Of a stretch of 64,000 nt of DNA, positions 8,643-64,000 are shown piece after piece. Position 1 is the first letter of the stretch. Every line of letters begins with the position of its first letter. Both the position numbers and the translations under genes were made by a program. Under the pieces are notes generated by a model. That model did not search any database and was not told the origin of the DNA. It saw only the letters and a list, made by a program, of their open reading frames with translations. The stretch is taken from NCBI GenBank assembly GCA_965228895.1, contig OZ245842.1:3872001-3936000 (forward strand). The letters run 5' to 3'. This stretch comes from Alphaproteobacteria bacterium (GTDB lineage: Bacteria; Pseudomonadota; Alphaproteobacteria; SP197).

Positions 8643-9478
8643 GACAACCTCCGCAGCTTGCGGGCTTCTTCGAGACCGTTCCAGAACACCTGCACACCGT
8701 CCAACATCTGGCGCCCGGCGGTGATGAAGCTCTCCTCGTCGAAGTCCAGGGGGCCGAAATAGAGATCCTTCAACTCAGCCATCGTGTGCGCGGCGTGCTG
8801 GTCCTCGATCTTGTCGTGCCAGCGGAAGAAGCCGAGGTTGAGATCGAGGCCGGACCGTACCTTGAAACTTTCAAGACCGGCGATCAGCTGTTTCCAGAAA
8901 CCGGCGGCCGCCCAGTTCTCGACAGCAAAGCCGGCACCGGCGGAGACCGAAAAGTCGTCGCTGCCGTAGAGCCGGATCAACTCGTCGCAGAACGCCAGCG
9001 TCGCGGGCGTGCCGACCGACCGGCGGCCGAGATCGCCAAACCTCAAACCCAGCGGCGCGGCAAAGTGCAGCAGCCATTCGTAGTGGGCGGCGCGGAAACG
9101 GAAGGTGCCGCCATCGACCGTGCCTTCGATGCCGACGATGTCGGGGTCGACATCCTTGTCGGATGCCCCCTGCTTGTCTGTCTGCCGGGCGCGAAAGACG
9201 ACACCCAACTCATTGGCCAGGATCTCCTTGGCGGCCCGCATCTCTTCCACATTGGCCGCGTTGATGACGCGCTGGGTCTGGGCGATCAGAAATTGGTTCG
9301 AGAAGACAGAGAACTGCCGCGTGAAATCGACGACGTCATCGTGGCTCAGCTCGGCACGGGCGAACCACGCGCAATAGCGGTTGTCGGTGATCGCGGGATG
9401 GCTGAACAGTTCCGCCGCAAGGCGGTCCTGAAAAAGATCAAACGACGACACCGCGTTGCCTAAAGCTGCTTGGCTCAT
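8639..9478 (-). CDS. Heme-oxygenase-like diiron oxidase (HDO; CADD/PqqC/TenA fold)
   Basis: [10 protein letters not shown]-terminus; ligand pattern ILANE...AAH...AVE...WHDKIEDQH; VFWNGL C-terminus; ATGA overlap with hppD. Confidence 0.75.
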
Positions 9479-46399: not shown

Positions 46400-47425
46400 T
46401 CAGGTTTCAAGCGCGGAGGCCGCCTGATTGACCAGTTCGGCCAGGATCTCGGCGGTCGGCTGTTCGGCCGTCACCAAACCAACGCTTTGACCGGCCATCA
46501 GCGAACCGGACTCGACATCGCCGTCGATCACGGCGCGGCGCAACGCCCCGGCCCAGAAATGCTCGATCTCGAGCTGGGCTGCCTTCTGGTCCAGTTCACC
46601 GCCGTCGAAGCGCTCGATGACCTCGCGCTGCTTGTCGAGAAACTCCTTCGTCGCCGCGTTGGTCAGCGCGCGCACCGGAATAACCGGAAAGCGCGGGTCA
46701 AGCTGAACCGACGGCTGGGCGTCGCGCGCGGCGGCACGGATAAAGCTGCGTTTGAAATCGCCGTGGGCGATTGACTCGGTGGCGCAGACGAACCGCGTGC
46801 CCAGCTGCACACCGACGGCGCCCATGGTGAGGTACGTGGCAATCGCCTCGCCCCGGCCGATGCCGCCGGCAACAAACACGGGCACGTCCTCGATATGCGG
46901 CAGAATCTCCTGGGCCAGCACGCCGGTGGCGACCGGACCGATATGGCCGCCGGCCTCCATGCCCTCAATGACGATCCCATCAATGCCGTCGCGGACCAGC
47001 TTGCGCGCGATGGCCAACGCCGGTGCGAAGCCAATCACCTTGGCACCGCGCGCCTTAACACGGGCGATGGTGTTCGATGACGGCAAACCACCGGCAAGCA
47101 CGATGTGGCTGACAGTGTGATCACCACAAACGTCGATCAGCGCGTCGAGATCGGGATGCATGGTGATGAGATTGACGCCGAAGGGTGCTCCCGTCAGGGC
47201 GCGTGTCGCCTCGATCTCAGCAGCCAGCAGATCCGGTGTCATGGCGCCGCAGGCGATTACGCCGAACCCACCGCCATTGGAAATTGCCGCCACCAGATTC
47301 CGCTCGGAAACCCAGGTCATGGCGCCGCCCATGATCGCGTGATCGACGCCCAGAAGATCGCGGCCGCGGGCCCAAAGCTGGTCGAGCCGAGCGCGACCTG
47401 GTGACGCTTTCAACAACCGGTTCAA
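46400..47425 (-). CDS. Nitronate monooxygenase / FabK-like flavin oxidoreductase
   Basis: GGAMTWVS, EGMEAGGH, AGGIG, QLGTRF, MAGQSVG. Confidence 0.9.
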   Translation of the reverse strand: MNRLLKASPGRARLDQLWARGRDLLGVDHAIMGGAMTWVSERNLVAAISNGGGFGVIACGAMTPDLLAAEIEATRALTGAPFGVNLITMHPDLDALIDVCGDHTVSHIVLAGGLPSSNTIARVKARGAKVIGFAPALAIARKLVRDGIDGIVIEGMEAGGHIGPVATGVLAQEILPHIEDVPVFVAGGIGRGEAIATYLTMGAVGVQLGTRFVCATESIAHGDFKRSFIRAAARDAQPSVQLDPRFPVIPVRALTNAATKEFLDKQREVIERFDGGELDQKAAQLEIEHFWAGALRRAVIDGDVESGSLMAGQSVGLVTAEQPTAEILAELVNQAASALET

Positions 47426-48642
47426 TCCACGTCCAGGCCGTAGGCCGTGTGAAGCGCGCGCAGCGCCAGCTCCAGGTAATCCTCGGAAATCAAAACACTG
47501 ATTTTGATTTCCGATGTCGAGATCAGTTGAATGTTGATGCCACGCCCGGCGAGCGCATCAAACATGGTGCGCGCGACACCGGCGTGACTGCGCATGCCGA
47601 CGCCGATCACAGAGACCTTCACCACGTTGGCATCCGGCGCGAAACGCTGCGCGCCCAGCTTGTCGTTATCTTTTTCGAGCAGATCGAGGGTGCGGTCCAA
47701 ATCGGACTTGGCGACGGTGAATGTCAGATCGGTGCGGTCGCCGTCCTCGGAGATGTTCTGGACGATCATGTCGACGTTGATGTTAGCGTCGGCTAAGGGC
47801 CCGAACAGGCTGGCAGCGACGCCGGGCCTATCCGGCAGGCCGATGATGGTGATTTTAGCGTCATCGCGGCTATAGGCGATGCCACTGACAACTTGTTGCT
47901 CCACGATTTCGTCCTCGTCGACGACAAGCGTGCCCGGCGTGTCGGTGAAGGTTGAGAGAACTTGCAACCGCACATGATGGTTCATGGCGGTAGCGACAGA
48001 CCGCGTGTGCAAGACCTTGGCGCCCTGGGACGCCAGTTCCAGCATTTCCTCATAGGTGATCTTATCGAGCTTGCGCGCCTTGGCAACGATCCGGGGATCG
48101 CACGTAAAGACGCCCTCGACATCGGTGAAGATGTCGCAGCGCTCTGCGCCCAGTGCGGCGGCCAGCGCCACGGCGCTCAAATCCGACCCGCCGCGGCCCA
48201 AGGTCGTCACGCGCCCGACGTCGCCGAGGCCTTGAAAACCGGTCACCACGGCGACTTGGCCGTTCGCCAGCCGCTCCTTCAACACACCTGTCTCGATGCG
48301 TTGGATACGGGCGGCGCCATAGACGTCGTCGGTCTGGACCGGAATCTGCCACCCCGTCCACGACCGGGCATCAATACCAAGCTGCTGCAGCGCAATCGCC
48401 ATCAGGCCGGCTGTGACCTGCTCGCCGCTGGAGACGACGGCATCGTATTCGCGCGCGTCGTGAACCGGCGCCATGGTGCGCACCAACTCGACCAGGCGGT
48501 TGGTCTCGCCGCCCATAGCCGACACAACGACCGCGACCTGGTCGCCCCGGTCGACGGCTTCTTTGACGCGTGTCGCGGCGTGGCGGATGCGATCGATACC
48601 GCCAACCGACGTCCCGCCGAATTTCTGAACGATGACGGCCAT
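47422..48642 (-). CDS. lysC: Aspartate kinase
   Basis: VQKFGGTSV, TLGRGGSD, two ACT domains, STSEIKIS. Confidence 0.97.
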   Translation of the reverse strand: MAVIVQKFGGTSVGGIDRIRHAATRVKEAVDRGDQVAVVVSAMGGETNRLVELVRTMAPVHDAREYDAVVSSGEQVTAGLMAIALQQLGIDARSWTGWQIPVQTDDVYGAARIQRIETGVLKERLANGQVAVVTGFQGLGDVGRVTTLGRGGSDLSAVALAAALGAERCDIFTDVEGVFTCDPRIVAKARKLDKITYEEMLELASQGAKVLHTRSVATAMNHHVRLQVLSTFTDTPGTLVVDEDEIVEQQVVSGIAYSRDDAKITIIGLPDRPGVAASLFGPLADANINVDMIVQNISEDGDRTDLTFTVAKSDLDRTLDLLEKDNDKLGAQRFAPDANVVKVSVIGVGMRSHAGVARTMFDALAGRGINIQLISTSEIKISVLISEDYLELALRALHTAYGLDVD

Positions 48643-48669: not shown

Positions 48670-48808
48670 CAGAGCGGATCGTGGTTAGGTGGAACCGGGT
48701 ACCCGGTTCCACCTAACCACGTGAATCCGCTCTCCATCTATTGATAGAGCAGATTCACCCGTCTTGATGGAATCGCAAAGTGATTCCATCAAGACGGGAT
48801 CTGCTCTA
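48670..48808. repeat. Bipartite palindromic repeat, copy 3, in lysC/ubiG divergent promoter region
   Basis: AGAGCGGATC...GAATCCGCTCTC plus TAGAGCAGATTC...GATCTGCTCTA. Confidence 0.9.
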
Positions 48809-48859
48809 AGGCCGGAAATAGCGCTTCCCGGCCGGAAAGCGGCCCTACATACTCTCGCG

Positions 48860-49645
48860 ATGATAGCGAAGCAAGCCGTCGCCCCCGCACCCGGCAAACG
48901 GCCATCAACGGTCGATCCGAACGAAGTCGACCAGTTTGACGCCCTGGCCGACCGCTGGTGGGACCCGACGGGACCCTTCCGGCCCCTGCACCGACTGACG
49001 CCGGCCCGCCTTACCTATGTTCGTGACCGCATTGCCACACATTTTGGTCTGGAAACTGGCCGAAATGAGCCATTTTCCGGGCTGCGTGGCGTCGATATCG
49101 GCTGCGGCGGCGGCCTGGCCAGCGAACCCCTTACCCGTCTGGGCATGGCGATGACCGGTGTCGACGCCGGCGCGAACAACATCGGCGCCGCCCAGGCACA
49201 CGCCAAAGGCCAAGGCTTGGTCATCGATTATCGCTGCACAACGGCCGAGGACGTTGCCGCAAACGGAGAACGGTTCGACGTCGTTCTGGCCCTTGAAATC
49301 ATAGAACACGTGGCCGATCGGGGCGCTTTTGTCCGGGCTTGTTGCGAACTGGCAACACCTGGCGGCCTGATCATCCTGTCGACGCTCAACCGCACGGCGA
49401 AAGCCTTTGGCCTGGCTATCGTGGGCGCGGAGTATGTTTTGCGCTGGCTGCCGCGTGGCAGTCACGATTGGCGCAAGTTTGTTCGGCCATCGGAACTAGC
49501 CCGCGATCTGCGCACGGCCGGCGCCAAACCGACCGACACAAAAGGCCTCGTCTTCGATATTGTCGCCAACGAATGGCGGCTTGCCGGCGATCTCGACGTC
49601 AACTATTTCATGACCGCCGTTTTGGATGCCCATAATGGAAGCTGA
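48860..49645 (+). CDS. ubiG: Ubiquinone biosynthesis O-methyltransferase
   Basis: WWDPTGPFRPLH, DIGCGGGL, EIIEHV, STLNRT, LPRGSHDW; start trimmed to ATG 48860. Confidence 0.95.
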   Translation: MIAKQAVAPAPGKRPSTVDPNEVDQFDALADRWWDPTGPFRPLHRLTPARLTYVRDRIATHFGLETGRNEPFSGLRGVDIGCGGGLASEPLTRLGMAMTGVDAGANNIGAAQAHAKGQGLVIDYRCTTAEDVAANGERFDVVLALEIIEHVADRGAFVRACCELATPGGLIILSTLNRTAKAFGLAIVGAEYVLRWLPRGSHDWRKFVRPSELARDLRTAGAKPTDTKGLVFDIVANEWRLAGDLDVNYFMTAVLDAHNGS

Positions 49646-52051: not shown

Positions 52052-53572
52052 ATGGACAAAATTGCAATCTTCGATCAGTTGGGCCTGAACGATCAGGACC
52101 TGCAGAACGACTACATGGCGGGCGGCGACCACGCGGTCACCAGCCCGATAGACGGCGCCGAACTGGCCCGCGTCAAGATGACATCACCGGATGATGTCGA
52201 CCGCATGGTCGCGCGGTCCGTCGAGGTTCAGCGCGCTTGGCGCAAGCTGACGCCGCCCCAGCGCGGCGAGGTGATCCGCCGCTTCGGCGACGAACTGCGC
52301 GCCCACAAGGATGCGCTTGGCGGCCTGGTCACGCTGGAAACCGGCAAGATCGTTGAAGAAGGCAAGGGCGAAGTGCAGGAGATGATCGACATCTGCGACT
52401 TCGCGCTTGGCCTGTCGCGCCAGCTCTATGGTCTCACCATCGCGTCGGAACGGCCCGGCCATCGCATGATGGAGACGTGGCACCCCCTGGGCGTTATCGG
52501 CTGTATCACCGCCTTCAACTTTCCCGTCGCCGTGTGGTCGTGGAACTTCTGCATCGCGGCGGTCTGCGGCAACACCATGGTGTGGAAGCCGTCGGAAAAG
52601 ACCCCGCTGACGGCGATCGCCTGCAAGCGCCTGTTGGGGCGTGCCGCCGATGCGTGTGACTTCGATGTGCCGTCGGACCTCGTCCAGATCGTCGTCGGCG
52701 CCCAGGAGGCCGGCGAACGTATGGTCGATAACCGCGACGTCGCGCTGGTCAGCGCCACCGGCAGCACGCGCATGGGATACGAGGTCGCGCCCCGCGTCGC
52801 CGGGCGCATGGGCCGTTACCTGCTGGAGCTGGGCGGCAACAACGCGGCCATCGTCGCGCCGACCGCCGATATCGATCTGACAGTACGCGGCATCGTGTTC
52901 TCGGCTGTCGGCACGGCAGGCCAGCGCTGCACCACACTGCGCCGTGTTATCGCCCACGACACCATCTATGACGCGCTGCTGACCCGTCTCAAGGCGGCCT
53001 ATGACAGCGTGCCCATCGGCAACCCCCTGGATGGCGGCAGCTTGGTCGGACCCATCATCGATGGGCGTTCGTTTCAGTCGATGCAGGCCGCGCTATCGCG
53101 CGCGATCGACGAAGGCGGGCGGATTCACGGCGGCGAGCGCGTGTTGGAGACCGAGTATCCCGGTGCCTATTACGTCAAGCCGGCGATCGCGGAGATGCCG
53201 TCGCAGACCGGCGTGGTCACCGAAGAGACCTTTGCGCCGATCCTATACACCATGCGCTACAGCGATTTCGCCGACGCCATCGCCATGCAGAACGACGTGC
53301 CCCAGGGCCTGTCATCCTGCGTCTTCACCAACGACCTTCGCGAAGCCGAAACCTTTGTCTCCGACGAAGGCAGTGATTGCGGCCTGGCCAATGTCAATAT
53401 CGGCCCGTCCGGTGCGGAAATCGGCGGCGCGTTCGGCGGCGAAAAGGATACCGGCGGCGGGCGCGAGTCCGGCTCCGATGCCTGGCGCGCCTACATGCGG
53501 CGCGCCACCAACACGGTCAACTTCTCGACGGAACTGCCGCTTGCCCAGGGTATCAGTTTCGATGTCGGCTGA
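52052..53572 (+). CDS. ALDH7/AmaB-like aldehyde dehydrogenase (piperideine-6-carboxylate dehydrogenase type)
   Basis: GEVQEMIDICDFALGLSRQLYG, LELGGNN, GQRCT, GGEKDTGGGRESGSDAW. Confidence 0.9.
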   Translation: MDKIAIFDQLGLNDQDLQNDYMAGGDHAVTSPIDGAELARVKMTSPDDVDRMVARSVEVQRAWRKLTPPQRGEVIRRFGDELRAHKDALGGLVTLETGKIVEEGKGEVQEMIDICDFALGLSRQLYGLTIASERPGHRMMETWHPLGVIGCITAFNFPVAVWSWNFCIAAVCGNTMVWKPSEKTPLTAIACKRLLGRAADACDFDVPSDLVQIVVGAQEAGERMVDNRDVALVSATGSTRMGYEVAPRVAGRMGRYLLELGGNNAAIVAPTADIDLTVRGIVFSAVGTAGQRCTTLRRVIAHDTIYDALLTRLKAAYDSVPIGNPLDGGSLVGPIIDGRSFQSMQAALSRAIDEGGRIHGGERVLETEYPGAYYVKPAIAEMPSQTGVVTEETFAPILYTMRYSDFADAIAMQNDVPQGLSSCVFTNDLREAETFVSDEGSDCGLANVNIGPSGAEIGGAFGGEKDTGGGRESGSDAWRAYMRRATNTVNFSTELPLAQGISFDVG

Positions 53573-53591
53573 GCCGGGCGGCGGTTAGCCG

Positions 53592-55379
53592 GTGACCGGC
53601 GACCAGATCGCAATCAGCGTCATCATCCTGGTAGCAGCAGCGCTGTTCATCTGGGGCCGCTGGCGCTACGACCTCGTCGCCTTTACCGCCTTGATTGCGG
53701 CCGTCTTGACCGGCGTGGTCAACAGCACGGCGGCCTTCGCCGGCTTCGGCCATCCCGCCGTCATCACGGTGCTGGCGGTGCTCGTCATCAGCCGCGGCCT
53801 GTTTAACTCCGGTGTCGTCGACATCATCGCGCGCACGGTCGTGCGCGCAAGCGCCAGTCCCTTCCTTCACGTCACCGTGCTGGCCGGTGTCGCGGCCTTT
53901 CTATCGGCGTTCATGAACAACGTCGCGGCGCTGGCGCTTTTGATGCCGGTCGCCCTGCAATCTTGCGCCAAGGTCGACCGCGCGCCGGCTCTGGTCTTGA
54001 TGCCGCTTTCCTTCGGCTCGATTCTGGGCGGCCTTGCAACACTGATCGGCACGCCACCCAACATCATCATTGCGTCCTATCGCGCCGAGAACCTGGGCGC
54101 AGGCTTCGGCATGTTCGACTTTACACCGGTCGGCGGTGTCGTCGCGGTGATCGGTGTTTTGTTCGTTGCGCTGGTGGGTTGGCGCCTGCTGCCCAAGGAC
54201 GTCAGAAGCCGCAATGTTCCCGCCGACCTGATCGCCATCGAAAACTACGTGACCGAAGCCAGCGTTGGCGAAGGTTCGAAGGCGATAGACCAACCGATCC
54301 ACGAGCTCGACGATACGCTGGAGGAACACGACACGCGGATCATCGGCCTGATCAGACAAGGCCGTCGCATCCTGAGTGCGGCGCGGCGCGAACACGTGCG
54401 CGAAGGCGACGTACTGATGCTTGAGGCAAGCCCCGAAGGTATCGCGGCCGCTGTCGCGGATCTGAAACTGGAACTGGTCGGCGACAAGGGTCAGGCAGCC
54501 GAACTCTTGACCGGCGCGAACGCCGTGATGGTCGAGGCCGTGGTTCAGCCACGCAGCCGGATCGAAGGCCACACGCCCAGCAGCCTGAGTCTGGGCCGCC
54601 AACACGATATCAATCTGTTGGCCGTATCACGCCAGGGCAGACCCCATCGCGGCCGCCTGCGCTCGTTCCGCTTCGAAGCCGGCGACGTTCTCCTGCTACA
54701 GGGCGAAAGCGAGGACATCCATACGGCGCTTGGCCGGCTCGGCTGTCTGCCTTTGACCATGCGCGAGGTTTCCATCGGCAAGCGCCGCATGATCCTGCCG
54801 GCCTTGGGTCTGTTCGTCGCCGCCGTCGCCGCCGCGGCGATGGGTCTTGTTGCCATCACCATCGCGTTTTCCGCCGTCATGATCGCCATGGTCTTGTTGC
54901 GCATGGTCAGCCTGCGCGAGCTCTATGACGCCGTCGACTGGCCCGTGCTGGTTTTGCTGGGCGCCATGATCCCGGTCGGCGGCGCGCTCGAGTCAACCGG
55001 CACGACAGCGCTCATCGCCAATGCCATCCTGTCTCTGGCGGGCGATCTCTCGCCGCTCATCCTGCTCGGCCTGGTTCTGGTCGTCACGATGACGCTGTCG
55101 GACATCATGAACAACGCAGCGACCGCCATCGTCATGGCGCCGATCGCCGTCGGCATCTCCAGCGCGTTGGGCGCCAACGCCGATCCGTTCTTGATGGCTG
55201 TCGCCATCGGCGCGTCCTGTGCGTTCCTGACACCCATCGGCCACCAGAACAACACGCTGATCATGGGTCCCGGCGGCTATCGGTTCGGCGACTACTGGCG
55301 CATGGGACTGCCGCTGGAGATCCTTATCGTTGTCGTTGCCGTGCCACTGATCTCGGTCGTCTGGCCCCTGGGAATCTGA
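53592..55379 (+). CDS. SLC13 family permease with TrkA-C domains
   Basis: SAFMNN, LIGTPPN, two internal TrkA-C domains, FLTPIGHQNN...GGYRFGDYWRMG. Confidence 0.9.
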   Translation: MTGDQIAISVIILVAAALFIWGRWRYDLVAFTALIAAVLTGVVNSTAAFAGFGHPAVITVLAVLVISRGLFNSGVVDIIARTVVRASASPFLHVTVLAGVAAFLSAFMNNVAALALLMPVALQSCAKVDRAPALVLMPLSFGSILGGLATLIGTPPNIIIASYRAENLGAGFGMFDFTPVGGVVAVIGVLFVALVGWRLLPKDVRSRNVPADLIAIENYVTEASVGEGSKAIDQPIHELDDTLEEHDTRIIGLIRQGRRILSAARREHVREGDVLMLEASPEGIAAAVADLKLELVGDKGQAAELLTGANAVMVEAVVQPRSRIEGHTPSSLSLGRQHDINLLAVSRQGRPHRGRLRSFRFEAGDVLLLQGESEDIHTALGRLGCLPLTMREVSIGKRRMILPALGLFVAAVAAAAMGLVAITIAFSAVMIAMVLLRMVSLRELYDAVDWPVLVLLGAMIPVGGALESTGTTALIANAILSLAGDLSPLILLGLVLVVTMTLSDIMNNAATAIVMAPIAVGISSALGANADPFLMAVAIGASCAFLTPIGHQNNTLIMGPGGYRFGDYWRMGLPLEILIVVVAVPLISVVWPLGI

Positions 55380-55382
55380 GTC

Positions 55383-56633
55383 ATGACACTCAACGTCCAG
55401 AGCGCTCTTGGCCTTGTTGTCCTGATCTTTATTGCCTGGCTCCTGGGCGGGGCCAGGAAGAAAGGTGCGCTCAAGATCGTCGCCGTCGGTGTCGGCCTCC
55501 AGTTCGTTCTGGCGCTGATTCTGCTGCTCATCAAACCGATACGCGATGCGCTCTCCTTGGTGACCGACGCCGTCGAAGCGATGGCGGCGGCGACCGAGGC
55601 CGGGACAACCCTGGTTTTCGGTTATCTGGGTGGCGGCGCGACACCGTTCGAGGTGAGCAATGCCGGGGCCATGTTCATCCTGGCGTTCCGCGGCCTACCG
55701 CTCATCCTCCTGGTCAGCGCGCTCAGCGCTCTGCTGACCCACTGGCGCATCCTGCCATGGATCATCCAGGCGATCAGTCGCGTCTTGGAGAAGAGCTTCG
55801 GCATCGGCGGCGCGGTCGGCCTGGCGACCGCCGCCAACATCTTTATCGGATCGGTCGAAGCACCGTTGTTTGTCCGTCCGTATCTGGCGCGTATGACACG
55901 CAGCGAACTCTTCGTCCTGATGGTTGGCGGCGCGGCAACCATCGCCGGAACGATGTTTGTCATCTATGCCACCATTCTGGGCGCCGCGGTATCAGACGCC
56001 GCCGGAAACCTACTCGTTGCCTCTGTCATGAGCGCGCCGGCGGCCATCATGGTCGGTCTGCTCATGCTGCCGGAGACCGAAGCCCAGACCAGCGGCCATG
56101 TCGCCGTGACCTCCGAGGCAAGCGGCGCCATGGACGCAATCGTCCAGGGCACCGAACAGGGCATCAAGATCGTGCTCGGCGTCATTGCCATGCTGATCGT
56201 GCTCGTCGCCCTGGTCAGTCTGGTCAATCAGATCCTCGGCCTATTCCCGGATGCCTGGGGCGCACCGTTGTCGTTGCAGCGCCTTCTGGGCTACGCGCTG
56301 GCGCCCCTGGCCTGGTTGCTCGGCATTCCGTGGGCGGAAGCGGAAACCGCCGGTCAGCTTCTCGGGACCCGGGTTATCTTGACCGAGTTCGTCGCCTATC
56401 TGGATCTGGCCGCCCTGCCCGCCGGCACGCTGACCGAACGCAGCGAGATCATCCTGACCTTCGCCATGTGCGGTTTCTCCAGTCTTGCCGCGCTCGGCAT
56501 CATCATCGGCGGCCTGTCGGCCATGGTGCCCAGCCGGCGCGCCGAGATCGTCGCGCTCGCGCCGCGCAGCATCCTGGCCGGCGTCATCGCGACATCCCTG
56601 ACCGGCTGCGTCGTCGGGGTTCTGATCTCCTAA
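55383..56633 (+). CDS. Concentrative nucleoside transporter (NupC/CNT family)
   Basis: ANIFIGSVEAPL, ATIAG, EFVAY, FAMCGF. Confidence 0.92.
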   Translation: MTLNVQSALGLVVLIFIAWLLGGARKKGALKIVAVGVGLQFVLALILLLIKPIRDALSLVTDAVEAMAAATEAGTTLVFGYLGGGATPFEVSNAGAMFILAFRGLPLILLVSALSALLTHWRILPWIIQAISRVLEKSFGIGGAVGLATAANIFIGSVEAPLFVRPYLARMTRSELFVLMVGGAATIAGTMFVIYATILGAAVSDAAGNLLVASVMSAPAAIMVGLLMLPETEAQTSGHVAVTSEASGAMDAIVQGTEQGIKIVLGVIAMLIVLVALVSLVNQILGLFPDAWGAPLSLQRLLGYALAPLAWLLGIPWAEAETAGQLLGTRVILTEFVAYLDLAALPAGTLTERSEIILTFAMCGFSSLAALGIIIGGLSAMVPSRRAEIVALAPRSILAGVIATSLTGCVVGVLIS

Positions 56634-56661
56634 ATCGACCGTTTGTTTGTTGGCCTTGCTC

Positions 56662-56704
56662 TTGACTCAATCGATATATCTAGATATCTAGAAATATCGA
56701 TTGA
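56662..56704 (+). promoter_or_regulatory. Promoter (-35 TTGACT) overlapped by a 38-bp near-perfect palindrome; probable ArsR operator
   Basis: TCAATCGATATATCTAGATATCTAGAAATATCGATTGA (56667-56704), one mismatched pair, AT-rich, just before RBS AAGGAG. Confidence 0.8.
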
Positions 56705-56720
56705 CCCGAAGGAGACCACC

Positions 56721-57125
56721 ATGCGTCTGCACATTTCGATGCAGGTTAAGGAATTCGACAAAGCCATCCGCTTCTACTCGGGCCTGTTCGGCCAGGCGCC
56801 GACGGTGACGCGCGACAACTACGCCAAGTGGGATGTCACCGACCCCAACGTCAACTTCGTCGTTGAAGCCCTGGGCAACGAAGTCCGCGTCGACCACCTG
56901 GGCATTCAAGCGGAGACCAAGGACGAACTGACGGTGCTGGCCGGGCGCATGCGCGAGAGCGGGCAGCCGTTCCTCGATGTCGAGAACGCGCAGTGCTGCT
57001 ACGCGGATCTCGACAAAGCCTGGGTCAAGGGCATGGCCGGCGAAAAATGGGAAGCCTTCTTCACCCACGGCCAGTCGGAGCAGGAATACGGCGAAGACCG
57101 CGAACACTTGCTTGATATCATGTGA
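56721..57125 (+). CDS. arsI: ArsI/CadI family VOC metalloenzyme (C-As lyase-like), copy 1
   Basis: RLH, YAKW...P.VNF, DHLGIQ, CCYA, WEAF; RBS AAGGAG. Confidence 0.8.
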   Translation: MRLHISMQVKEFDKAIRFYSGLFGQAPTVTRDNYAKWDVTDPNVNFVVEALGNEVRVDHLGIQAETKDELTVLAGRMRESGQPFLDVENAQCCYADLDKAWVKGMAGEKWEAFFTHGQSEQEYGEDREHLLDIM

Positions 57126-57168
57126 CGTCAACACCGTCACAGCCGATCACAAGCAAGGAAGTCATCAC

Positions 57169-57975
57169 GTGGAAACGAATCAAACCGATACCGTCGCTTC
57201 GAGCCAAGGACGTTTGTCCGGCAAGAACGCCATCGTCACCGGCGGCGCCGGCGGCATGGGCCGTGCCGCGTCCGTGCTGTTTGCGCGCGAGGGCGCTGCC
57301 GTCACGATCCTCGACATTCAGAAAGAAGCCGGTGAAGAGACAGTCGACGAGATCGAGCAAGCTGGTGGACGGGCGCAGTTCGTCGAGACCGATGTCACCG
57401 ACACCGGCCAGATCGTTCGTGCTTTCGACAAGGCAACCACGACTTACGGCGAACCGGACGTGTTGTTCAGTCACGCCGGCACCATCATCGTGAAACGTTT
57501 CCACGAAACGACGGACGATGACTACGACCGCCTGATGGCGATCAACGCCAAGTCGTCCTTTCTGTGCTGCCGCGAAGCGATCCGGCGCTTTCTCGACGCT
57601 GGCAGGCCCGGGTCGATCGTTATCACGTCGTCGATCGGCGGCGAAAAAGGTTTCGCTCTGGAAAGCGTCTACTGCATGTCGAAAGGCGCGGTGCTGCAGC
57701 TCGCACGCTCGATATCCAGTGAATACCGGGACCAGGGCATTCGCTGCAACGCGGTCTGTCCGGGTTTCGTGAAAACGGCGCATGGCCTGCGCGAAATCGA
57801 TGAACTCGATGGTCTGGGACAGACCTGGGAAGAGGCCGCGCTTGCCGAATCGCAAGTCCGTATCTGCGAGCCCGAGGAAGTCGCCGCGGCGGCGCTTTAT
57901 CTGGCCTCAGACGACGCGAGCTTCGTCAACGGCACAGCGCTCTATGTCGATAACGACTGGTACGCGAAAGGCTAA
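57169..57975 (+). CDS. Short-chain dehydrogenase/reductase within ars-type operon
   Basis: TGGAGGMG, SHAG, YCMSK, NAVCPG; GTG start after AAGGAAG. Confidence 0.9.
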   Translation: METNQTDTVASSQGRLSGKNAIVTGGAGGMGRAASVLFAREGAAVTILDIQKEAGEETVDEIEQAGGRAQFVETDVTDTGQIVRAFDKATTTYGEPDVLFSHAGTIIVKRFHETTDDDYDRLMAINAKSSFLCCREAIRRFLDAGRPGSIVITSSIGGEKGFALESVYCMSKGAVLQLARSISSEYRDQGIRCNAVCPGFVKTAHGLREIDELDGLGQTWEEAALAESQVRICEPEEVAAAALYLASDDASFVNGTALYVDNDWYAKG

Positions 57976-57998
57976 CCCATGCACATCCGGCAAACATT

Positions 57999-58253
57999 GT
58001 GAGTGAAGAAAGCGTCAGGGCGTTTGTGCTGCAGGCGCGCGACGACGAAACGCTCAAGGAATCCATGCGCCACGTCGGCTCATCCGATGACGTGGTCGCG
58101 CTTGCCGTCACAGCCGGTCACAGGTTTTCGGCCGACGACTTGGACAAGACCAACGTCGACCTGGCGGCCGAAGATCTGACGAAACTTGCCGTCCGCCGGG
58201 CCGGCTTCCGTGTCCAGCCTTATGGCGCGAAACACTGGTTCGGGTGGAAGTAG
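57999..58253 (+). CDS. Nif11-like leader peptide domain protein (possible RiPP precursor)
   Basis: MSEESVRAFV...DDETLKE...DDVVALAVTAGHRFSADDL...DLAAEDL matches the Nif11 (N11P) leader pattern; weak RBS. Confidence 0.72.
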   Translation: MSEESVRAFVLQARDDETLKESMRHVGSSDDVVALAVTAGHRFSADDLDKTNVDLAAEDLTKLAVRRAGFRVQPYGAKHWFGWK

Positions 58254-58298
58254 TAACTCTGGCCGCCAAAGCGTGGCCTCTGCCAATGGAGCATTTGA

Positions 58299-58619
58299 AT
58301 GTCGTTTCTTTCCCAACACTTTCCTGAGTTCACATCCACGCTTACGGAAATGGACAAGGTTTACGAACAACACCGAACGATCGACCACAAGACCGACGAG
58401 CTCATCCGTTTTGCCTTGTCGATCAAGGCGCGCTCCAAACCCTGTGTCCTCAAACACTTCAAGGGCGCGGTCGACGCCGGTGCCAACGAATACGATCTCG
58501 CCTATATCCTCGCTCTGGTGATGCGCGAGGCCGCCGGTGCCGACGACTGCTGGACCCACGATGTCATTGGCGACTGGCAGGAGGTCATTTCCGGCAAGCG
58601 CGGCTGCGGTTGTCCTTAG
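58299..58619 (+). CDS. Carboxymuconolactone decarboxylase/AhpD-like protein with four Cys
   Basis: IDHKTDELIRFALSIKARSKPCVLKHFKGAVDAGA CMD pattern; DDCW; C-terminal GCGC. Confidence 0.75.
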   Translation: MSFLSQHFPEFTSTLTEMDKVYEQHRTIDHKTDELIRFALSIKARSKPCVLKHFKGAVDAGANEYDLAYILALVMREAAGADDCWTHDVIGDWQEVISGKRGCGCP

Positions 58620-58629
58620 GAGGCATGTG

Positions 58630-59037
58630 ATGGGTGCTCTAGCGGAACAATGGGCGCAGTTGCGCGAGCTCTCGATGCGCGAGGACACGCTGGCGCTGGA
58701 AGAAGCAGCACAGGGTTTTGCCGCGGCGGGGTCGGAACCACGCCTGGAGGTGCTGCGTATCCTGATCCGCGCCGGCGAGGCCGGATTGACAATCGGCGAG
58801 GTACAAAACCGCGTGGGCTTTGCGTCCTCGACGCTGTTCCATCATCTGCGTTTCTTATCGTCGGCCGGCCTTATCGAACAGGTGAAGTCGGGCCGGACGG
58901 TGCACAACCGGGCGAACTTTGCCCGGATCGAATCGCTCGCGGCGTTCCTGCTGCACGAGTGCTGTTTCGAAGATCCCGAGTACGCACCCGACGGCAAGAC
59001 ACTCGGCTGTAAACCGCGCCGGCGTTCACAATCATGA
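58630..59037 (+). CDS. arsR: ArsR/SmtB family repressor (C-terminal CC type)
   Basis: EPRLEVLRILIRAG..GL.IG...SSTLFHHL..L..AGLI; ECC plus a further Cys; GGAGG RBS. Confidence 0.88.
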   Translation: MGALAEQWAQLRELSMREDTLALEEAAQGFAAAGSEPRLEVLRILIRAGEAGLTIGEVQNRVGFASSTLFHHLRFLSSAGLIEQVKSGRTVHNRANFARIESLAAFLLHECCFEDPEYAPDGKTLGCKPRRRSQS

Positions 59038-59056
59038 ACCCGAAAGGAGAAGACAC

Positions 59057-59497
59057 ATGAAACGGATCCACATGGGAATCGTCGTGACCGATTTCGACAA
59101 ATCGCTGAAGTTCTACTCGGACCTACTCGGCGCCAGCCCAACGCTGCTCAAGGACGGGTATGCGCGCTGGATGCTGGACGATCCCTGCGTCAACCTGAAC
59201 ATCAACGTTCAGGGTCCGGCGCCGGGCATCGATCATGTCGGTATCCAGGTCGACAGCGATGACGACGTTGCCGAAGCCGGCGAACGGTTGCGCGCCGCCG
59301 GTCATCTGGCAAAGGACGATAACGACTCGAACTGCGGCTACGCCGAACAGACCAAGGTGTGGGTCTCCGACCCCCAGGGCGTCGTGTGGGAGACCTTCCA
59401 CTCCAAGAAAGCCCTTGAGAACTATGGCGAAAATGATTTGCCCGACGACCTTATCGAAGAACTGCGCGACGGTGCCGGAGCCACAGCGCCGTCGTAG
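59057..59497 (+). CDS. ArsI/CadI family VOC metalloenzyme, copy 2 (CG instead of CC)
   Basis: KRIH, YARWMLDDPCVNL, DHVGIQV, NCGYAEQTKVWVSDPQGVVWETF; RBS AAGGAG. Confidence 0.8.
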   Translation: MKRIHMGIVVTDFDKSLKFYSDLLGASPTLLKDGYARWMLDDPCVNLNINVQGPAPGIDHVGIQVDSDDDVAEAGERLRAAGHLAKDDNDSNCGYAEQTKVWVSDPQGVVWETFHSKKALENYGENDLPDDLIEELRDGAGATAPS

Positions 59498-59682
59498 ACG
59501 AGCTGCCGGGCCGTAGAAATCCATCTGGGGCGAGCCGCGATAGGCGGCTTGCCCCAGATTGCCACAATCACACCATGGTCCAGCCGCCTTCCTGTGCCAT
59601 AAGATGGTCGGCGAAGGCATGGGGTCGCTGAAACCATCAAGACCCGCTGCAGTGCCTTCGCCGAAAATCGGGAGGGTTGGCG

Positions 59683-62600
59683 ATGACGGCACGTGGGTTG
59701 GCGACTGTCTGGTGTCTGGTACTTTTGGCCATGGGGCTATCGGGGCCGTATGCCCTGGCACAAGACACCAAGACACTTCCCAGCCTGGAGGTCACCGACC
59801 TCGCCGTCGATCCCGAGAGCGATCCCCCGCTCGCCTGCATCAGCTTCGATGAACGGCTTGCCGAGAGCGAAGGCCTCGACTGGAAGAGTTTCGTCCGCAT
59901 CGACCCGGACGCCGATATCGCCATCACGGCACGGCGCAACTTCCTGTGCCTTGAAGGTCTCAAACACGGTGAGCGTTATGACGTCACCCTGAAAGCGGGC
60001 CTGGCGGGCACCACCTCGGCGCTGGCCGAGGACGTGCCTCTGCAGATCGTCATGCCCGACCGCGCGCCGACCGTGTCCTTTGCCGCCGGCGACGATGTCT
60101 TGCCGCGCGTCGGCGTCCAGGGTCTGCCGGTCACCACGGTCAACGTCCCGATCCTCGTGTTGAAGGTGTTTCGCATCAACGAGCGCGCCGTCGCGGCGCG
60201 TGGCGGCAGCGACCTGCAGGGCGGCGAGGTCTATTCGTGGACCCTGGATGATCTCGAGAACGAGAGCGGCGAGCTCCTGTGGTCCGGCGAAATGGATATC
60301 GCCGGCACCATGAACAAGGACGTGCGCACCGCCATCCCCTTGAATGAGGTGATCGGCACCCTGGAGCCCGGTCTCTATGTCGCCACCGCCCTTGATGCCC
60401 GGCGCGCCGATGACGACTACCCGGCCTGGGAAAGCCAGCCCTTCATGGTCTCGAACCTGGGCGTGGCGACGGCGCTTGGCGATAGCGGTCTGGACGTCAC
60501 CGTGCGTTCGCTGGCCGATGCGACGCCGCTGGCCGGCGTGACCCTGGAACTGATCGCGCGCAACGACGCGGTGCTCGGCACCATCGTGACCGACGCCGAC
60601 GGGTATGCGCGCTTCGATCCCGGCATGGTGCGCGGCACGGGCGGCAATCGGCCCAAGCTGCTGACCGCGACCGACAGCGAGGGCGACTACGTCTATGTCG
60701 ACCTTGCCTCAGCCCCCATTGATCTCAGCGATCGCGGCGTCAGCGGCCGCGCGCCATCGGGCCCGCTGGACGCCTATCTCTATACTGAGCGCGGCATCTA
60801 TCGGCCCGGTGAGACCGCCCATATCACCGCCATTCTGCGTGACGAAAACGGCGCGGCGGCGTCGGACCTGCCGCTGACCTTCCGCGTGCTGCGCCCCGAC
60901 GGTCAGGAGGTCCTGCAACGCACTTCGGCTGACGACGAAGACGGCGGCCATCTGTTGACCCTCGATATCGCGGGCAACGCCTATACCGGCACCTGGACGG
61001 TCGAAGCCTATGTCGATCCGGATGGCGCGCGGGTCGGCCAGGTCAACTTCCTGGTCGACGACTTCGTGCCGCCGCGCATCGAGGTCGAGATGTCGGCATC
61101 GCCCGACGTGCTCTCGGTCAAGACGCCGGAAGCGACCGTCGATGTCGAGGCGCGGTTCCTCTACGGCAGCCCCGCCGGCAATCTGGCGGCCGAGCTCAGT
61201 CAGGTGGTCGCCAAGTCGGTTCACCCCTTCGCCGATCTCCAGGACTACTATTTCGGCCTGGCGGAAGAAAACGTGCTGCCGCGTCAGCTCGACGACATCG
61301 CGTTCACGACCGATGACGCCGGCCAAGCGAGCCTGGCGATCGCGGTACCGCCCGACGAGGGCGTTCAGTCCCCCGTCGAACTGCAATTGCGCGCGACCGT
61401 CTTCGATGTCGGCGGGCGACCCGTCAGCCGTGAGCTGACCTTACCCATCGTCCAGCAGCCGATGCTGCTCGGCATCCGGCCCAGTTTCGAGGACGATCGC
61501 GCACCATGGCGCCAACCCGCCGAATTTGATGTGATCGCTGTCGACTGGTCGGGCCAGCGCATCGACAAATCGGGCCTGCAGTGGGATCTCTTCCGCGAGC
61601 AGTATGACTGGGTCTGGTACGAGGACGACCAGTGGCAGTACCGCGGCGTTCTCTATGACCGTCATATCGCGGGTGGACGCTTCGACGCCGCCGCCGATAC
61701 CCCGGCCCGGATCGCCGCCGAAATCGACTGGGGCTGGTTCCGGCTCGAGGTCTATGATGCCGAAACAGGGATCGCCAGCAGCTACCGTTTCCGTGGCGGC
61801 TGGTCCTATGGCGTCGCCGGATCCGACGGCACGCCGGACGCGGTGACCGTTACCTTGTCCGAACAGGTCTATGCGCCCGGCGACACGGCCGCCGTCTTCG
61901 TTCAGCCGCCGTTCGATGCCGAAGTCGAGATTGCGGTCATGGATAGCGGCGTACGCGACATCATGCGTGTGGCGGTGCCCAAAGAAGGCATGGAGATCAG
62001 CCTGCCGATCGAGGCCACGTGGTCGCCCGGCGTCTACGTCGTCGCGACCGCCTATAACAAGACGCCGATGGCCGACGAACTGATTTCGCGGCGCGCCATC
62101 GGCGCGGTCTGGATGGCCGTCGAGGAACCCGACCAGCGCCTGACGGTGACGATCGATGCACCGGACTCGATCGAACCCACCCAGACACTGGCCGTCCCGA
62201 TCCAGGTGTCCGGTCAGGCCGCCGGCACGAAAGCTTTCGTGACCCTGGCCGCCGTTGATGACGGTATCCTGCAGCTGACGCGCTTCGACGCGCCAGACCC
62301 GGCGAGTTACCTGCTGGACCAACGCCGTCTGGGCGTCGATCTACGCGACATCTACGGCCGGCTGATCGACCCCAGCGCCTCGGCACTCGGTCAGCTGCGC
62401 TCCGGTGGCGACATGATGCGCGGCGCCGGCGTCGGCTCGCTGCCGCAACGCTCCAGCAAGGTCGTCTCGCTCTTCTCCGGCATTGTCGAAACCGATGCGG
62501 ACGGGCGCGCGGTCATCGAGCTCGACATCCCCGACTTCAACGGGCGGCTGAAACTGATGGCGGTCGCGTGGACCGTGGCCGGCGTCGGCGCGGCCGCCGT

Positions 62601-64000
62601 CGACATGACCGTTGCCGCACCCGTGGTGGCCGACCTCTCCCTGCCACGCTTCCTGGCGCCCGGTGACCGTGCCTGGGCGACACTTGCCGTCGACAATGTC
62701 AGCGGCACGCCCGGCCCGTACAGCTTCCAGGTCAACGCCGGTGGCGCCGTGACGATCATCGGCGCGAACCAGCAGAGCATCGATCTGGCGGTCGGCGACG
62801 GCACCGGTCTGCAATTCGAGCTGGTCGGCGACCATCTTGGCGTGGCGGACATCCAGCTCACCGTGACCGGTCCCGACGACTATCTGGAGGTGCGGTCGTG
62901 GGGCCTGACCGTGCGACCGGCGACACGCGCCGATGTCACGCGTGTCTCGATGACACTCGAGCCCGGCGCATCCGACAGTGTGAGTACATCGTTGTCAGAC
63001 GGTCTCTATCCAGAGTCCGTCGTTGCCACGATCGGCCTCAACACCGTGCCGGCGTTCGACGTCAAAGGTCTGCTCGATGAACTCGCCGCATACGGTTACG
63101 CCTGCGCCGAACAGACGACGAGCCGCGCCTTGCCCCTGCTCTATTTTACGAGCGACGGCATGCTGGGCCCGGATGATGTCATCGAGAACCTCACCACCCA
63201 CCACGATGTCGATGAGGCCGTGCGCAGCGTGCTCGCCATGCAGCGGCCCGACGGCACCTTCGGTTACTGGTGGTGGTACAATGACACCAATCTGTGGCTT
63301 TCGACCTATGTCATGGACTTTCTGGTCCGCGCGCGCGAACGCGGCGTCTTCGTGCCTGAATTCGGCTATGACCGCGGCATCAAGGCGCTGCAACGCGCCG
63401 TCGCCGATTGGCGCGACGAGTCCGGCGACCTCGCCTACGCCTATTATGTGCTCGCCAGAAGCGGCAACAGCGACCTCGCCGAGCTCGAGTACTTCGCCAC
63501 GACGCATTATGAGGACGAGTGGTTCCTGGACGAGGCCTTCATCGCCGCGTCGTTCGATCTGCTCGGCGATCCCGAACGGGCTGCCGAGGTCGCGGCCGGC
63601 ATCAACCCCAACTTGGAAGATCTGCAGAGTCACGAGTGGTCGTGGCGCTATCGTTCGGTTTTGACCGATCTCGCCGCCGCCACGGCGGTGCTCGGCGAGA
63701 GTCGGTCGATCCCGGCGGCCAAGGTCCTGAACCTCGCCCAGCTGACGTCGGAGGTCTATGCCACGCGCCGTTGGATCAGCACCCACGAGGAAGCCTGGAT
63801 GCTGCTGGCGGCACGCAGCCTTGACCGTTTCACCGGCGACGTCCGAGCGACACTCGGCGGCGAAACCATTGACCAGAGCCAGGGTTTGAGCCGCGATCTC
63901 GCCTGGCCGCCGGCAGGCGGGTCGCTCGACGTGGCCAACCAGGGCGACAAACCGCTCTACGCGACCGTCACCGTGCGCGGCTATCCGATGGAAGCGCCGC
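59683..64000 (+). CDS. Bacterial alpha-2-macroglobulin; 3' end outside window
   Basis: Not in ORF track; my frame +1 translation: MTARGLATVWCLVLLAMGLSGPYALAQD..., LCLEGLKHGERY, YLYTERGIYRPGE, LAAVDDGILQLT, PDFNGRLKLMAVAW, PRFLAPGD, thioester CAEQ at 63103-63114. Confidence 0.93.
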   Translation, partial: MTARGLATVWCLVLLAMGLSGPYALAQDTKTLPSLEVTDLAVDPESDPPLACISFDERLAESEGLDWKSFVRIDPDADIAITARRNFLCLEGLKHGERYDVTLKAGLAGTTSALAEDVPLQIVMPDRAPTVSFAAGDDVLPRVGVQGLPVTTVNVPILVLKVFRINERAVAARGGSDLQGGEVYSWTLDDLENESGELLWSGEMDIAGTMNKDVRTAIPLNEVIGTLEPGLYVATALDARRADDDYPAWESQPFMVSNLGVATALGDSGLDVTVRSLADATPLAGVTLELIARNDAVLGTIVTDADGYARFDPGMVRGTGGNRPKLLTATDSEGDYVYVDLASAPIDLSDRGVSGRAPSGPLDAYLYTERGIYRPGETAHITAILRDENGAAASDLPLTFRVLRPDGQEVLQRTSADDEDGGHLLTLDIAGNAYTGTWTVEAYVDPDGARVGQVNFLVDDFVPPRIEVEMSASPDVLSVKTPEATVDVEARFLYGSPAGNLAAELSQVVAKSVHPFADLQDYYFGLAEENVLPRQLDDIAFTTDDAGQASLAIAVPPDEGVQSPVELQLRATVFDVGGRPVSRELTLPIVQQPMLLGIRPSFEDDRAPWRQPAEFDVIAVDWSGQRIDKSGLQWDLFREQYDWVWYEDDQWQYRGVLYDRHIAGGRFDAAADTPARIAAEIDWGWFRLEVYDAETGIASSYRFRGGWSYGVAGSDGTPDAVTVTLSEQVYAPGDTAAVFVQPPFDAEVEIAVMDSGVRDIMRVAVPKEGMEISLPIEATWSPGVYVVATAYNKTPMADELISRRAIGAVWMAVEEPDQRLTVTIDAPDSIEPTQTLAVPIQVSGQAAGTKAFVTLAAVDDGILQLTRFDAPDPASYLLDQRRLGVDLRDIYGRLIDPSASALGQLRSGGDMMRGAGVGSLPQRSSKVVSLFSGIVETDADGRAVIELDIPDFNGRLKLMAVAWTVAGVGAAAVDMTVAAPVVADLSLPRFLAPGDRAWATLAVDNVSGTPGPYSFQVNAGGAVTIIGANQQSIDLAVGDGTGLQFELVGDHLGVADIQLTVTGPDDYLEVRSWGLTVRPATRADVTRVSMTLEPGASDSVSTSLSDGLYPESVVATIGLNTVPAFDVKGLLDELAAYGYACAEQTTSRALPLLYFTSDGMLGPDDVIENLTTHHDVDEAVRSVLAMQRPDGTFGYWWWYNDTNLWLSTYVMDFLVRARERGVFVPEFGYDRGIKALQRAVADWRDESGDLAYAYYVLARSGNSDLAELEYFATTHYEDEWFLDEAFIAASFDLLGDPERAAEVAAGINPNLEDLQSHEWSWRYRSVLTDLAAATAVLGESRSIPAAKVLNLAQLTSEVYATRRWISTHEEAWMLLAARSLDRFTGDVRATLGGETIDQSQGLSRDLAWPPAGGSLDVANQGDKPLYATVTVRGYPMEAP

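Follow-up and report, generated by a model that had tools for sequence, protein, structure and literature searches.

ArsI, the enzyme that cleaves carbon-arsenic (C-As) bonds with O2, is described in the accessible parts of PMC6138428 and PMC12607644 as binding iron through Gln8, His65 and Glu117 (His5, His62 and Glu115 in the Bacillus enzyme) and its substrate through Cys98 and Cys99, replacement of the equivalent pair by serine abolishing activity, and with Tyr38, Gln103 and Lys105 as further essential residues. In the two-step organoarsenical pathway, as far as the accessible part of PMC6138428 describes it, the reducing step has no named enzyme, and a literature search found no paper on a methylarsenate reductase. 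With regard to regulation, the available portion of PMC11868830 places the As(III) site of the type-2 ArsR at Cys95, Cys96 and Cys102 and reports that an ArsR relative without Cys102 responds to methylarsenite only. The present study concerns a stretch of 64,000 nucleotides (hereafter the window) from the genome of an alphaproteobacterium (GCA_965228895.1, contig OZ245842.1, positions 3,872,001 to 3,936,000), in which a compact cassette combines two genes for ArsI/CadI-type proteins of the VOC fold (VOC1 and VOC2) and a gene for an ArsR-family regulator with genes encoding a short-chain dehydrogenase/reductase (SDR), a Nif11-leader-like peptide and a small protein of the carboxymuconolactone decarboxylase/AhpD fold (CMD). 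It is tentatively suggested, with a probability put slightly short of even, that the locus moved horizontally, regulates itself and serves to detoxify trivalent arsenicals, of which organoarsenicals such as methylarsenite or aromatic arsenicals are the likeliest.

Open reading frame (ORF) and family searches, the latter run with Pfam and NCBIfam against curated cut-offs, revealed all six genes at their predicted positions on the plus strand (56721-59497), with gaps from 5' to 3' of 43, 23, 45, 10 and 19 nt. The original prediction of six co-oriented, closely spaced genes behind a strong operator was therefore correct as to gene content, and the features are as follows.

56632..59557, no strand: the cassette as a whole, about 2.9 kb, comprising promoter/operator, six genes and terminal hairpin
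56662..56667, plus strand: -35-like hexamer TTGACT, read in the sequence
56667..56704, no strand: palindromic operator, presumed ArsR binding site, with 19-nt arms that are 95% complementary
56721..57125, plus strand: VOC1, ArsI/CadI-family metalloenzyme and candidate C-As lyase, 134 aa (NF041414, 112.8 bits)
57169..57975, plus strand: SDR, a classical short-chain dehydrogenase/reductase with GTG start, 268 aa (adh_short, 169.3 bits; adh_short_C2, 200.8 bits)
57999..58253, plus strand: Nif11-leader-like peptide, 84 aa (PF07862, 39.2 bits against a cut-off of 23.8; TIGR03798, 39.9 against 32.3)
58299..58619, plus strand: four-Cys protein of the CMD/AhpD fold, 106 aa (PF02627, 24.0 bits against 23)
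58630..59037, plus strand: ArsR/SmtB-family repressor, 135 aa (HTH_5, 25.3 bits against 22; HTH_20, 30.1 against 27)
59057..59497, plus strand: VOC2, ArsI/CadI paralogue of a distinct Cys-Gly subfamily, 146 aa (NF041414, 114.4 bits against 116)
59523..59559, plus strand: stem-loop and possible terminator, with a 16-bp perfect stem and no U tract, 26 nt past the VOC2 stop

The boundaries of the cassette emerged from comparison of the window genome (G000) with two other species of its genus (G001 and G002). In both congeners, the nupC and alpha-2-macroglobulin genes that flank the cassette in the window are adjacent, 46 bp apart, and the window flanks (55002-56631 and 59558-61010) align to these genomes at 87-88.6% DNA identity. 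Since the two genes adjoin there without the cassette, 56632-59557 is an insertion in the window genome, i.e., a discrete inserted cassette. The complete six-gene set recurs in both G001 and G002, where it aligns to the window over 56718-59488 only, at 72-73% DNA identity, and is located elsewhere, with a gene for a papain-like protease on one side and one for an EamA transporter on the other; the block around these copies is syntenic to G000 at 4.93 Mb, where the cassette, the protease gene and that EamA gene are absent. Because the cassette diverges more than its flanks and occupies different sites, its history suggests exchange and not simple vertical descent. Recurrence of the gene set, proposed earlier as a check, was seen within one genus only: of 33 genomes examined from the order, three contain the full set, and the SDR/Nif11 linkage was not seen outside that genus. 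All six genes are under purifying selection (Ka/Ks 0.03-0.24, values that are rough because Ks is near saturation), with CMD the most constrained (0.03-0.04), followed by VOC2 (0.06-0.07), by VOC1, SDR and ArsR (0.12-0.20, SDR at 0.16) and by the Nif11 peptide (0.18-0.24).

The regulatory region is likewise conserved. The palindrome directly follows the TTGACT hexamer and overlaps both the spacer and the -10 region. In the window it is matched by only one other long, near-perfect palindrome, and its 12-nt core occurs a single time in the 5.53-Mb genome. The sequence CTTGACTC at the -35-like box is invariant in all three species and the operator core CTAGATATCTAG is conserved in G000, G001 and G002, while in the outer arms one position has changed on both arms together across species, indicating a compensatory change. 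The operator is real, and the view of the locus as an ars-type unit under an ArsR-family repressor is supported. A scan for the sigma-70 consensus gave no full match and no promoter-like site, so the promoter is a presumed one. None of the terminator-like matches lay between genes. Downstream of the cassette genes, the segment 59498-59590 folds at -47.4 kcal/mol (z -4.71; 0 of 200 shuffles equally stable); in G001 and G002, the sequence 3' of the cassette gave no comparable hairpin (z 0.81 and -2.09, respectively). Rfam and tRNA scans of the window gave no matches.

Both VOC proteins match the solved ArsI-type chains 5d4f and 5c4p over the full length with E values of 1e-20 to 1e-22, and for VOC1 these are the best solved relatives (1.4e-22). 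The metal triad of these chains aligns with His4/His59/Glu110 of VOC1 and with His5/His60/Glu112 of VOC2, and a vicinal Cys-Cys of VOC1, kept in the congeners, aligns with the ArsI substrate pair. VOC1 can hence be regarded as a candidate C-As lyase carrying the ArsI hallmarks, in agreement with its earlier designation as ArsI. In VOC2, the Cys-Gly that had been taken for an As(III)-suited motif corresponds to the loss of one Cys of the substrate pair. The same Cys-Gly is carried by 13 of the 13 closest VOC2 protein clusters (48-100% identity), and it is therefore not a private mutation; Cys-Cys is found in all 29 best VOC loci from other alphaproteobacterial genera. Judged by these residue patterns, VOC2 is a member of a distinct, conserved Cys-Gly subfamily of ArsI/CadI proteins. 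All four ArsI/CadI paralogues in the window genome have His at the first ligand position, and the paralogue that scores above the family cut-off (121.9 bits) is also without Gln at the Gln103 column. The search of the class for VOC relatives matched 75 of 401 genomes, a tally that includes one unpublished genome (G071); no other result depends on it. In the 29 best loci from other alphaproteobacterial genera, an ArsR gene adjoins the VOC gene in 24, and CMD, SDR and Nif11 genes were found within 1.5 kb in none.

The best solved relative of the regulator was 6j05 ('Transcriptional regulator ArsR', E 5.4e-10). Its Cys pair, where the C-terminal helix ends, aligns column for column with Cys95/Cys96 of 6j05. 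A third Cys follows the pair at a distance of 15 residues, and all three are kept in the congeners; relative to 6j05, the protein also has an N-terminal extension of about 25 residues. The regulator is accordingly placed nearest to the C-terminal-Cys ArsR type, as had been proposed, and would be predicted to be released by arsenicals.

Among 20 diverse relatives of the CMD protein, Cys49, His53, Cys84, Cys103 and Cys105 are invariant, as is Ser46, such that the CxxC of AhpD reads SxxC in CMD (S-x-x-C-x-x-x-H versus C-x-x-C-x-x-x-H of 7y4r and 3bey) and three extra invariant Cys are present, one within a DDCW motif and the other two forming a C-terminal CxC. The predicted structure (mean pLDDT 53.8, pTM 0.35) was too poor for a fold search, and complex prediction for VOC2 (13-row alignment) with CMD (20 rows) scored 0.00, which is no evidence either way. 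A protein search with CMD returned 879 relatives, and a scan of 185,579 species genomes detected at least 490 stretches encoding a relative. The best 80 of these 490 belong to anaerobic lineages, including Desulfobacterales, Clostridia, Anaerolineae, Spirochaetia and Methanosarcina, and encode proteins 64-70% identical to that of the window, the exception being the genus copy on the G001 contig L010 (88%).

Neighbours of CMD were tallied by hand for 51 of the 54 loci with full flanks, by comparing 150 of the 161 nearest ORFs (at most three per locus) with Pfam; this and the other neighbour tallies rest on simple ORF calls made in the analysis. In these 51 loci of other phyla, the neighbours included an ArsP_1 permease (26 loci), an ArsR-type helix-turn-helix protein (18) and a Thioredoxin_3 protein (14), with at least one of the three beside CMD in 34 loci and none of them in 17. 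A wider scan compared 112 of 162 ORFs with NCBIfam in 14 loci, out to about 5 kb, leaving aside those scanned earlier and a number of short ones, together with the remainder of L057 and the whole of L081. Arsenic-specific models scored above cut-off in 3 of the 14 loci, namely Acr3 directly after the CMD gene (L021), ArsM in the CMD neighbourhood (L042), and ArsF with ArsG behind an ArsC-like gene (L037). The last of these, in a metagenome-assembled genome (MAG) of Desulfobacterales, reads over 4315-8820 as ArsR, ArsP_1 permease, CMD, Fe-S protein, ArsC-like protein, ArsF-family nitroreductase subunit and ArsG-family permease, which places the CMD family inside an aromatic-arsenical cluster. 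The original description of CMD as an ars-linked protein is in keeping with the company of ars genes that the family keeps in other genomes, and the four-Cys CMD family is put forward as a candidate ars component.

The window CMD itself falls in a separate branch of a quick tree (16 of 120 rows, support 99). The motif of this branch was found in 6 of 162 loci, comprising the three genus copies and three short metagenome contigs, whose gene orders are VOC (Cys-Gly), hydrolase fragment, CMD and ArsR (76% identity) in L092, CMD and ArsR (60% identity) in L105, and MIP channel and CMD in L093. Some CMD and VOC2 relatives come from contigs of equal length (10177 and 3046) and may thus be encoded together. 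The fragment in L092 (342-728) is an alpha/beta-hydrolase-like ORF, so judged by sequence alone, that stops after 128 aa and may be a gene remnant. Within the order, the CMD gene was detected in three of 33 genomes, each belonging to the genus, and it was found in none of 400 other genomes of the class; the plasmid collection held only three distant matches (22-31% identity), and in the ESM Atlas only unnamed CMD clusters were matched. No paper linking CMD with arsR was found among those listed, nor one linking AhpD with arsM and a selenoprotein.

The SDR possesses the TGxxxGxG cofactor motif, the catalytic Ser and YxxxK, all conserved in the three species; no NCBIfam model reached its cut-off, and the best solved match was the unnamed SDR 7djs (E 7.9e-43). 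Its LCCR reads LSCR in both congeners and is therefore not a conserved motif. The earlier statement that five of the six proteins carry As(III)-suited Cys motifs does not hold for the SDR; one Cys is missing from VOC2, and none occurs in the Nif11 peptide. Among 400 other genomes of the class, seven encode an SDR relative (49-57% identity), and VOC, CMD, ArsR and Nif11 genes were found in none of these 7 loci. No paper linking SDR with organoarsenicals, or ArsI with SDR in an ars operon, was found in the searchable library.

The Nif11 peptide has the same length (84 aa) in the three species. Its N-terminal ~60 residues align with cyanobacterial Nif11 precursors of ribosomally synthesized and post-translationally modified peptides (RiPPs) at 36-41% identity, and its C-terminal 15-mer, which is Cys-free, is the best-conserved part among four related sequences. 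This C-terminus is common only to the two congener copies, P0196 (identical to the G002 copy) and P0122; a search of 1.84 billion representative proteins turned up only one full-length relative, to which a word-based search added one more, and a Nif11 gene match was obtained in 1 of 400 other genomes of the class, a weak one. The presumed core contains no Gly-Gly site and no Cys, Ser or Thr. No maturase or peptidase-transporter was found near the gene, its neighbours beyond the cassette being transporters, an aldehyde dehydrogenase and an alpha-2-macroglobulin, and the window genome yielded no second Nif11 gene and no C39 peptidase match. No paper linking Nif11 with arsenic was found by title or abstract.

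Other arsenic-type genes were searched for in the genome. Pfam and NCBIfam identified no ArsB, Acr3, ArsP, ArsK or ArsJ exporter and no arsC among the six cassette genes. At about 830.1-832.3 kb of contig C1 (L090, 7144-9301), directly after sdhCDAB, lies an arsR-arsI operon that also encodes an ArsC-like protein (62 bits, short of its NCBIfam cut-offs of 174-215) and a MIP channel; its ArsI scores 121.9 bits, which exceeds the cut-off of 116, and ends in a Cys-Cys tail. A third pair of ArsR and ArsI/CadI VOC (Cys-Cys) occurs at about 3.183-3.186 Mb of C1 (L091), followed by GST-like and amidase genes on the minus strand. In the genome search, neither Acr3 nor ArsH was matched and nothing scored above the ArsM cut-off; the ArsB family was matched weakly, and two ArsP_1 permeases are encoded elsewhere. 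Since such genes occur in the genome, the cell is not left without pump and reductase by the cassette's lack of them. The original point that arsC, efflux, arsM and arsH are missing stands for the cluster and is less striking in view of the canonical arsR-arsI-arsC-MIP operon at ~830 kb, whose channel is of the aquaglyceroporin type.

Several neighbouring genes were considered as further parts of the unit. In the congeners, the papain-like protein (619 aa, Peptidase_C1 domain) is encoded directly 5' of the cassette (L180, 5824-7683; L181, 5257-7116) and the EamA transporter directly 3' of it (L180, 10730-11644; L181, 10164-11078). Neither has an orthologue at the corresponding G000 locus (4.93 Mb), and with both missing from G000 their membership in the cassette is not supported. 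Methyltransferases beside the congener copies were rejected as ArsM, for they scored 82-85 bits against 263 and matched the SAM-binding core only. The upstream transporters were likewise rejected as members, as nupC adjoins the alpha-2-macroglobulin gene without the cassette in the congeners; the same-strand run at 52052-56633, which encodes an aldehyde dehydrogenase, a CitMHS/DASS-type transporter with two TrkA_C domains and a NupC-type nucleoside transporter, is ancestral flank outside the cassette. On the other side, the alpha-2-macroglobulin gene (59677-63999, 3' open) encodes MG2, bMG3, bMG5, bMG6, bait-region and A2M domains. The other long palindrome of the window is a perfect 42-nt one (21-nt arms, no spacer) at 48680-48721, in the divergent gap between an aspartokinase-like gene (47422-48642, minus strand) and a class-I methyltransferase gene (48764-49645, plus strand).

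The analysis shows which genes are present, that the operator is conserved, where the cassette is bounded, that its genes are under purifying selection and which residues they retain; the inducer, co-transcription and every enzymatic step are inferred. An ArsR dimer would occupy the palindrome over the promoter; an arsenical would bind the C-terminal Cys pair of the regulator, perhaps with the distal Cys as third ligand, and release the repressor, and the six genes would then be read as one transcript. VOC1, by means of its metal triad and vicinal Cys pair, would cleave C-As bonds with O2 as ArsI does, and the As(III) product may exit via the MIP channel of the separate arsR-arsI-arsC-MIP operon. 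The four-Cys CMD could serve as a thiol partner that carries the arsenical or keeps the arsenical or enzyme thiols reduced. To VOC2, the SDR and the Nif11 peptide no step can be assigned.

A number of observations weigh against this proposed detoxification of trivalent arsenicals. The sole model fitting the two VOC proteins, NF041414 (ArsI_CadI_VOC), gives 112.8 bits for VOC1 and 114.4 for VOC2, both under the curated 116-bit cut-off that the third paralogue of the genome exceeds with 121.9, and the ArsI/CadI family name also refers to a cadmium-induced protein. VOC1 has Leu at the Gln103 position (Met in the congeners), with the Tyr and Lys kept; VOC2 keeps Tyr, Gln and Lys and has Cys-Gly instead of Cys-Cys. 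In the regulator, Tyr stands at the Cys102 position, so that the third ligand is not matched, and the NCBIfam HTH_metalloreg score is 45.8 bits, below the cut-off of 55. Moreover, 2 of the 14 CMD loci of the wider scan instead show lipoamide-dehydrogenase-like and GcvH-like genes, and on a plasmid of Bosea sp. AS-1 (L182; NZ_CP022371, 21414-35638) a 31%-identical CMD closes a sulfide-oxidation cluster, whose members include an FAD oxidoreductase, Blh, two YeeE/YedE genes and TauE. For the SDR and the Nif11 peptide, no arsenic link is seen on the available sequence comparisons, and of the seven SDR relatives three lie by amino-acid permeases, one by an ethanolamine ammonia-lyase and one by an aminotransferase. 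As for the two Bacillota MAGs with the lipoamide-dehydrogenase genes, CMD there follows genes for a lipoamide-dehydrogenase/MerA-like protein, a GcvH-like fusion, a DGC-domain protein and an ArsR-type regulator (L035, 1663-6324; L057, 1641-6324), an arrangement that looks like a thiol-redox module.

Some of these points would fit a general response to soft or thiophilic metals (Cd, Sb, Hg) of the CadI/Rv2640c kind, in which the regulator would sense such a metal, the VOC proteins and CMD would bind or buffer it, and no C-As bond would be cleaved. The only model for both VOC proteins, which fall just under its cut-off, names an ArsI/CadI 'heavy metal resistance metalloenzyme', each of them is without one residue reported essential for the lyase, the second-best NCBIfam match of the regulator is an Rv2640c-type ArsR (42.6 bits against a cut-off of 155), and cation-diffusion transporters lie beside CMD in L064 and L021. 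This explanation is nonetheless considered doubtful: in the alignment, the Cys pair of the regulator falls on the arsenite site of an ArsR of known structure, VOC1 retains the lyase triad and the vicinal Cys pair, and where specific neighbours of the CMD family appear they are Acr3, ArsM and ArsF/ArsG. A unit against thiol, oxidant, electrophile or reactive-sulfur stress, with ArsR as a Cys redox switch and with the AhpD-fold, SDR and glyoxalase-fold proteins detoxifying peroxides, carbonyls and persulfides, is judged unlikely. The three folds are classic members of such responses, the CMD relatives of the Bosea sulfide-oxidation cluster and of the two Bacillota loci would suit it, and the G001/G002 cassettes lie near a 1-Cys peroxiredoxin and a rhodanese; the latter two, however, belong to the ancestral flank and are kept in G000 without the cassette, the canonical CxxC of AhpD is SxxC here, and the only Cys of the regulator sit at the ArsR type-2 place, with none in the helices that known persulfide sensors use.

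The original prediction had gone further, to the catabolism of complex organoarsenicals (arsenosugar, arsenocholine or arsenolipid fragments), with the SDR oxidising the organic part, CMD acting as thiol reductase or carrier and the VOC pair cleaving C-As bonds. Nothing points to such substrates, and this scheme is regarded as quite unlikely. The cassette does place an alcohol/ketone oxidoreductase between its ArsI-like gene and the ars-type regulator, and three species retain this enzyme under purifying selection; the neighbours of its relatives are compatible with small amino-alcohol substrates; yet the cassette has no uptake system, glycosidase, lipase or choline-type gene, the SDR linkage is confined to one genus and missing from the seven loci of SDR relatives, the SDR Cys pair is unconserved, and the literature search gave no link between SDR and organoarsenicals. 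Very unlikely, in our judgement, is a RiPP-like cluster in which the Nif11 precursor is tailored by Fe-dependent VOC proteins, SDR and CMD and ArsR is merely the regulator. Such a cluster would account for an 84-aa product above the cut-off of the Nif11 leader model, for the ~60 residues shared with cyanobacterial precursors, for the well-conserved C-terminal 15-mer and for the protease and EamA exporter that flank the cassette in G001 and G002. Against it stand the core without Gly-Gly, Cys, Ser and Thr, the lack of a known maturase in the cassette, of a C39 peptidase match and of a second Nif11 gene in the genome, the absence of protease and EamA from the G000 copy, and the ars-type relatives of four of the six cassette genes.

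Returning to the preferred interpretation, an arsenical detoxification cassette, new ars genes have repeatedly been discovered as unexplained passengers of ars operons. The present cassette offers two testable candidates, namely a strongly conserved four-Cys AhpD-fold family, with 65-70% identity among members from an alphaproteobacterium, from sulfate reducers, from clostridia and from methanogens, and a conserved ArsI paralogue without one substrate-binding Cys. If either acts on arsenicals, a step would be added to the organoarsenical cycle, which bears on herbicide and feed-additive residues and on marine arsenic turnover. A bolder possibility, and in our estimate an improbable one, is that the four-Cys CMD is a widespread, undescribed arsenic-resistance component (thiol reductase or carrier) that feeds ArsP-type exporters in anaerobes and the ArsI-like pair here, VOC2 relying on CMD for its missing thiol, so that the cassette would be a complete reduce-and-cleave route for pentavalent methyl and aromatic arsenicals. 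In addition, a biosensor could make use of the operator-repressor pair, which is tight and unique. Should all of these expectations fail, the cassette would be an ordinary lineage-specific stress operon.

Compared with known systems, the VOC proteins resemble ArsI of Bacillus sp. MD1 and of Thermomonospora curvata (5c4p/5d4f) in the full-length match, in a His/His/Glu triad as in the Bacillus enzyme and in the Cys pair of VOC1; they differ, as far as sequence can tell, in scoring below the family cut-off and in the Leu at Gln103 of VOC1 and the Cys-Gly of VOC2. The adjacency of ArsR and ArsI/CadI is shared with the arsR-arsI pairs, which are common in the class, and with the arsR-arsI-arsC-aquaglyceroporin operons of alphaproteobacteria, as seen in 24 of the 29 loci and twice more in this genome, whereas here the regulator is fifth of six genes, two VOC genes, CMD, SDR and Nif11 are present, and arsC, channel and pump are not. 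With the type-2 ArsR of Acidithiobacillus ferrooxidans (6j05) and the methylarsenite-selective two-Cys ArsR of Shewanella putrefaciens, the regulator has in common the Cys pair at the C-terminal helix end, and it departs from 6j05 by the Tyr at Cys102, the Cys 15 residues past the pair and the N-terminal extension of ~25 residues. The Nif11 peptide is like the Nif11-leader RiPP precursors of the prochlorosin type in its N-terminal ~60 residues (36-41% identity) and in passing the leader model, and unlike them in that Gly-Gly and a Cys-rich core are missing and the cassette encodes neither LanM nor a peptidase-transporter; moreover, the core of the peptide is more conserved than its leader. CMD shares with AhpD/carboxymuconolactone decarboxylase (PF02627; 7y4r, 3bey) the core helices, including the His after the active-site motif, and differs by the Ser in place of the first CxxC Cys and by three further invariant Cys. 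The ArsR/ArsP-type permease/thioredoxin-like/CMD clusters of anaerobic bacteria and archaea contain the same four-Cys family at 65-70% identity, often with an ArsR-type regulator (18 of 51 loci), while the window branch is accompanied by a Cys-Gly VOC, an ArsR orthologue or a MIP channel and not by ArsP or thioredoxin-like genes. Overall, the cassette differs from known ars operons in four ways, through its duplicated and diverged VOC, its CMD, its SDR and its Nif11 peptide.

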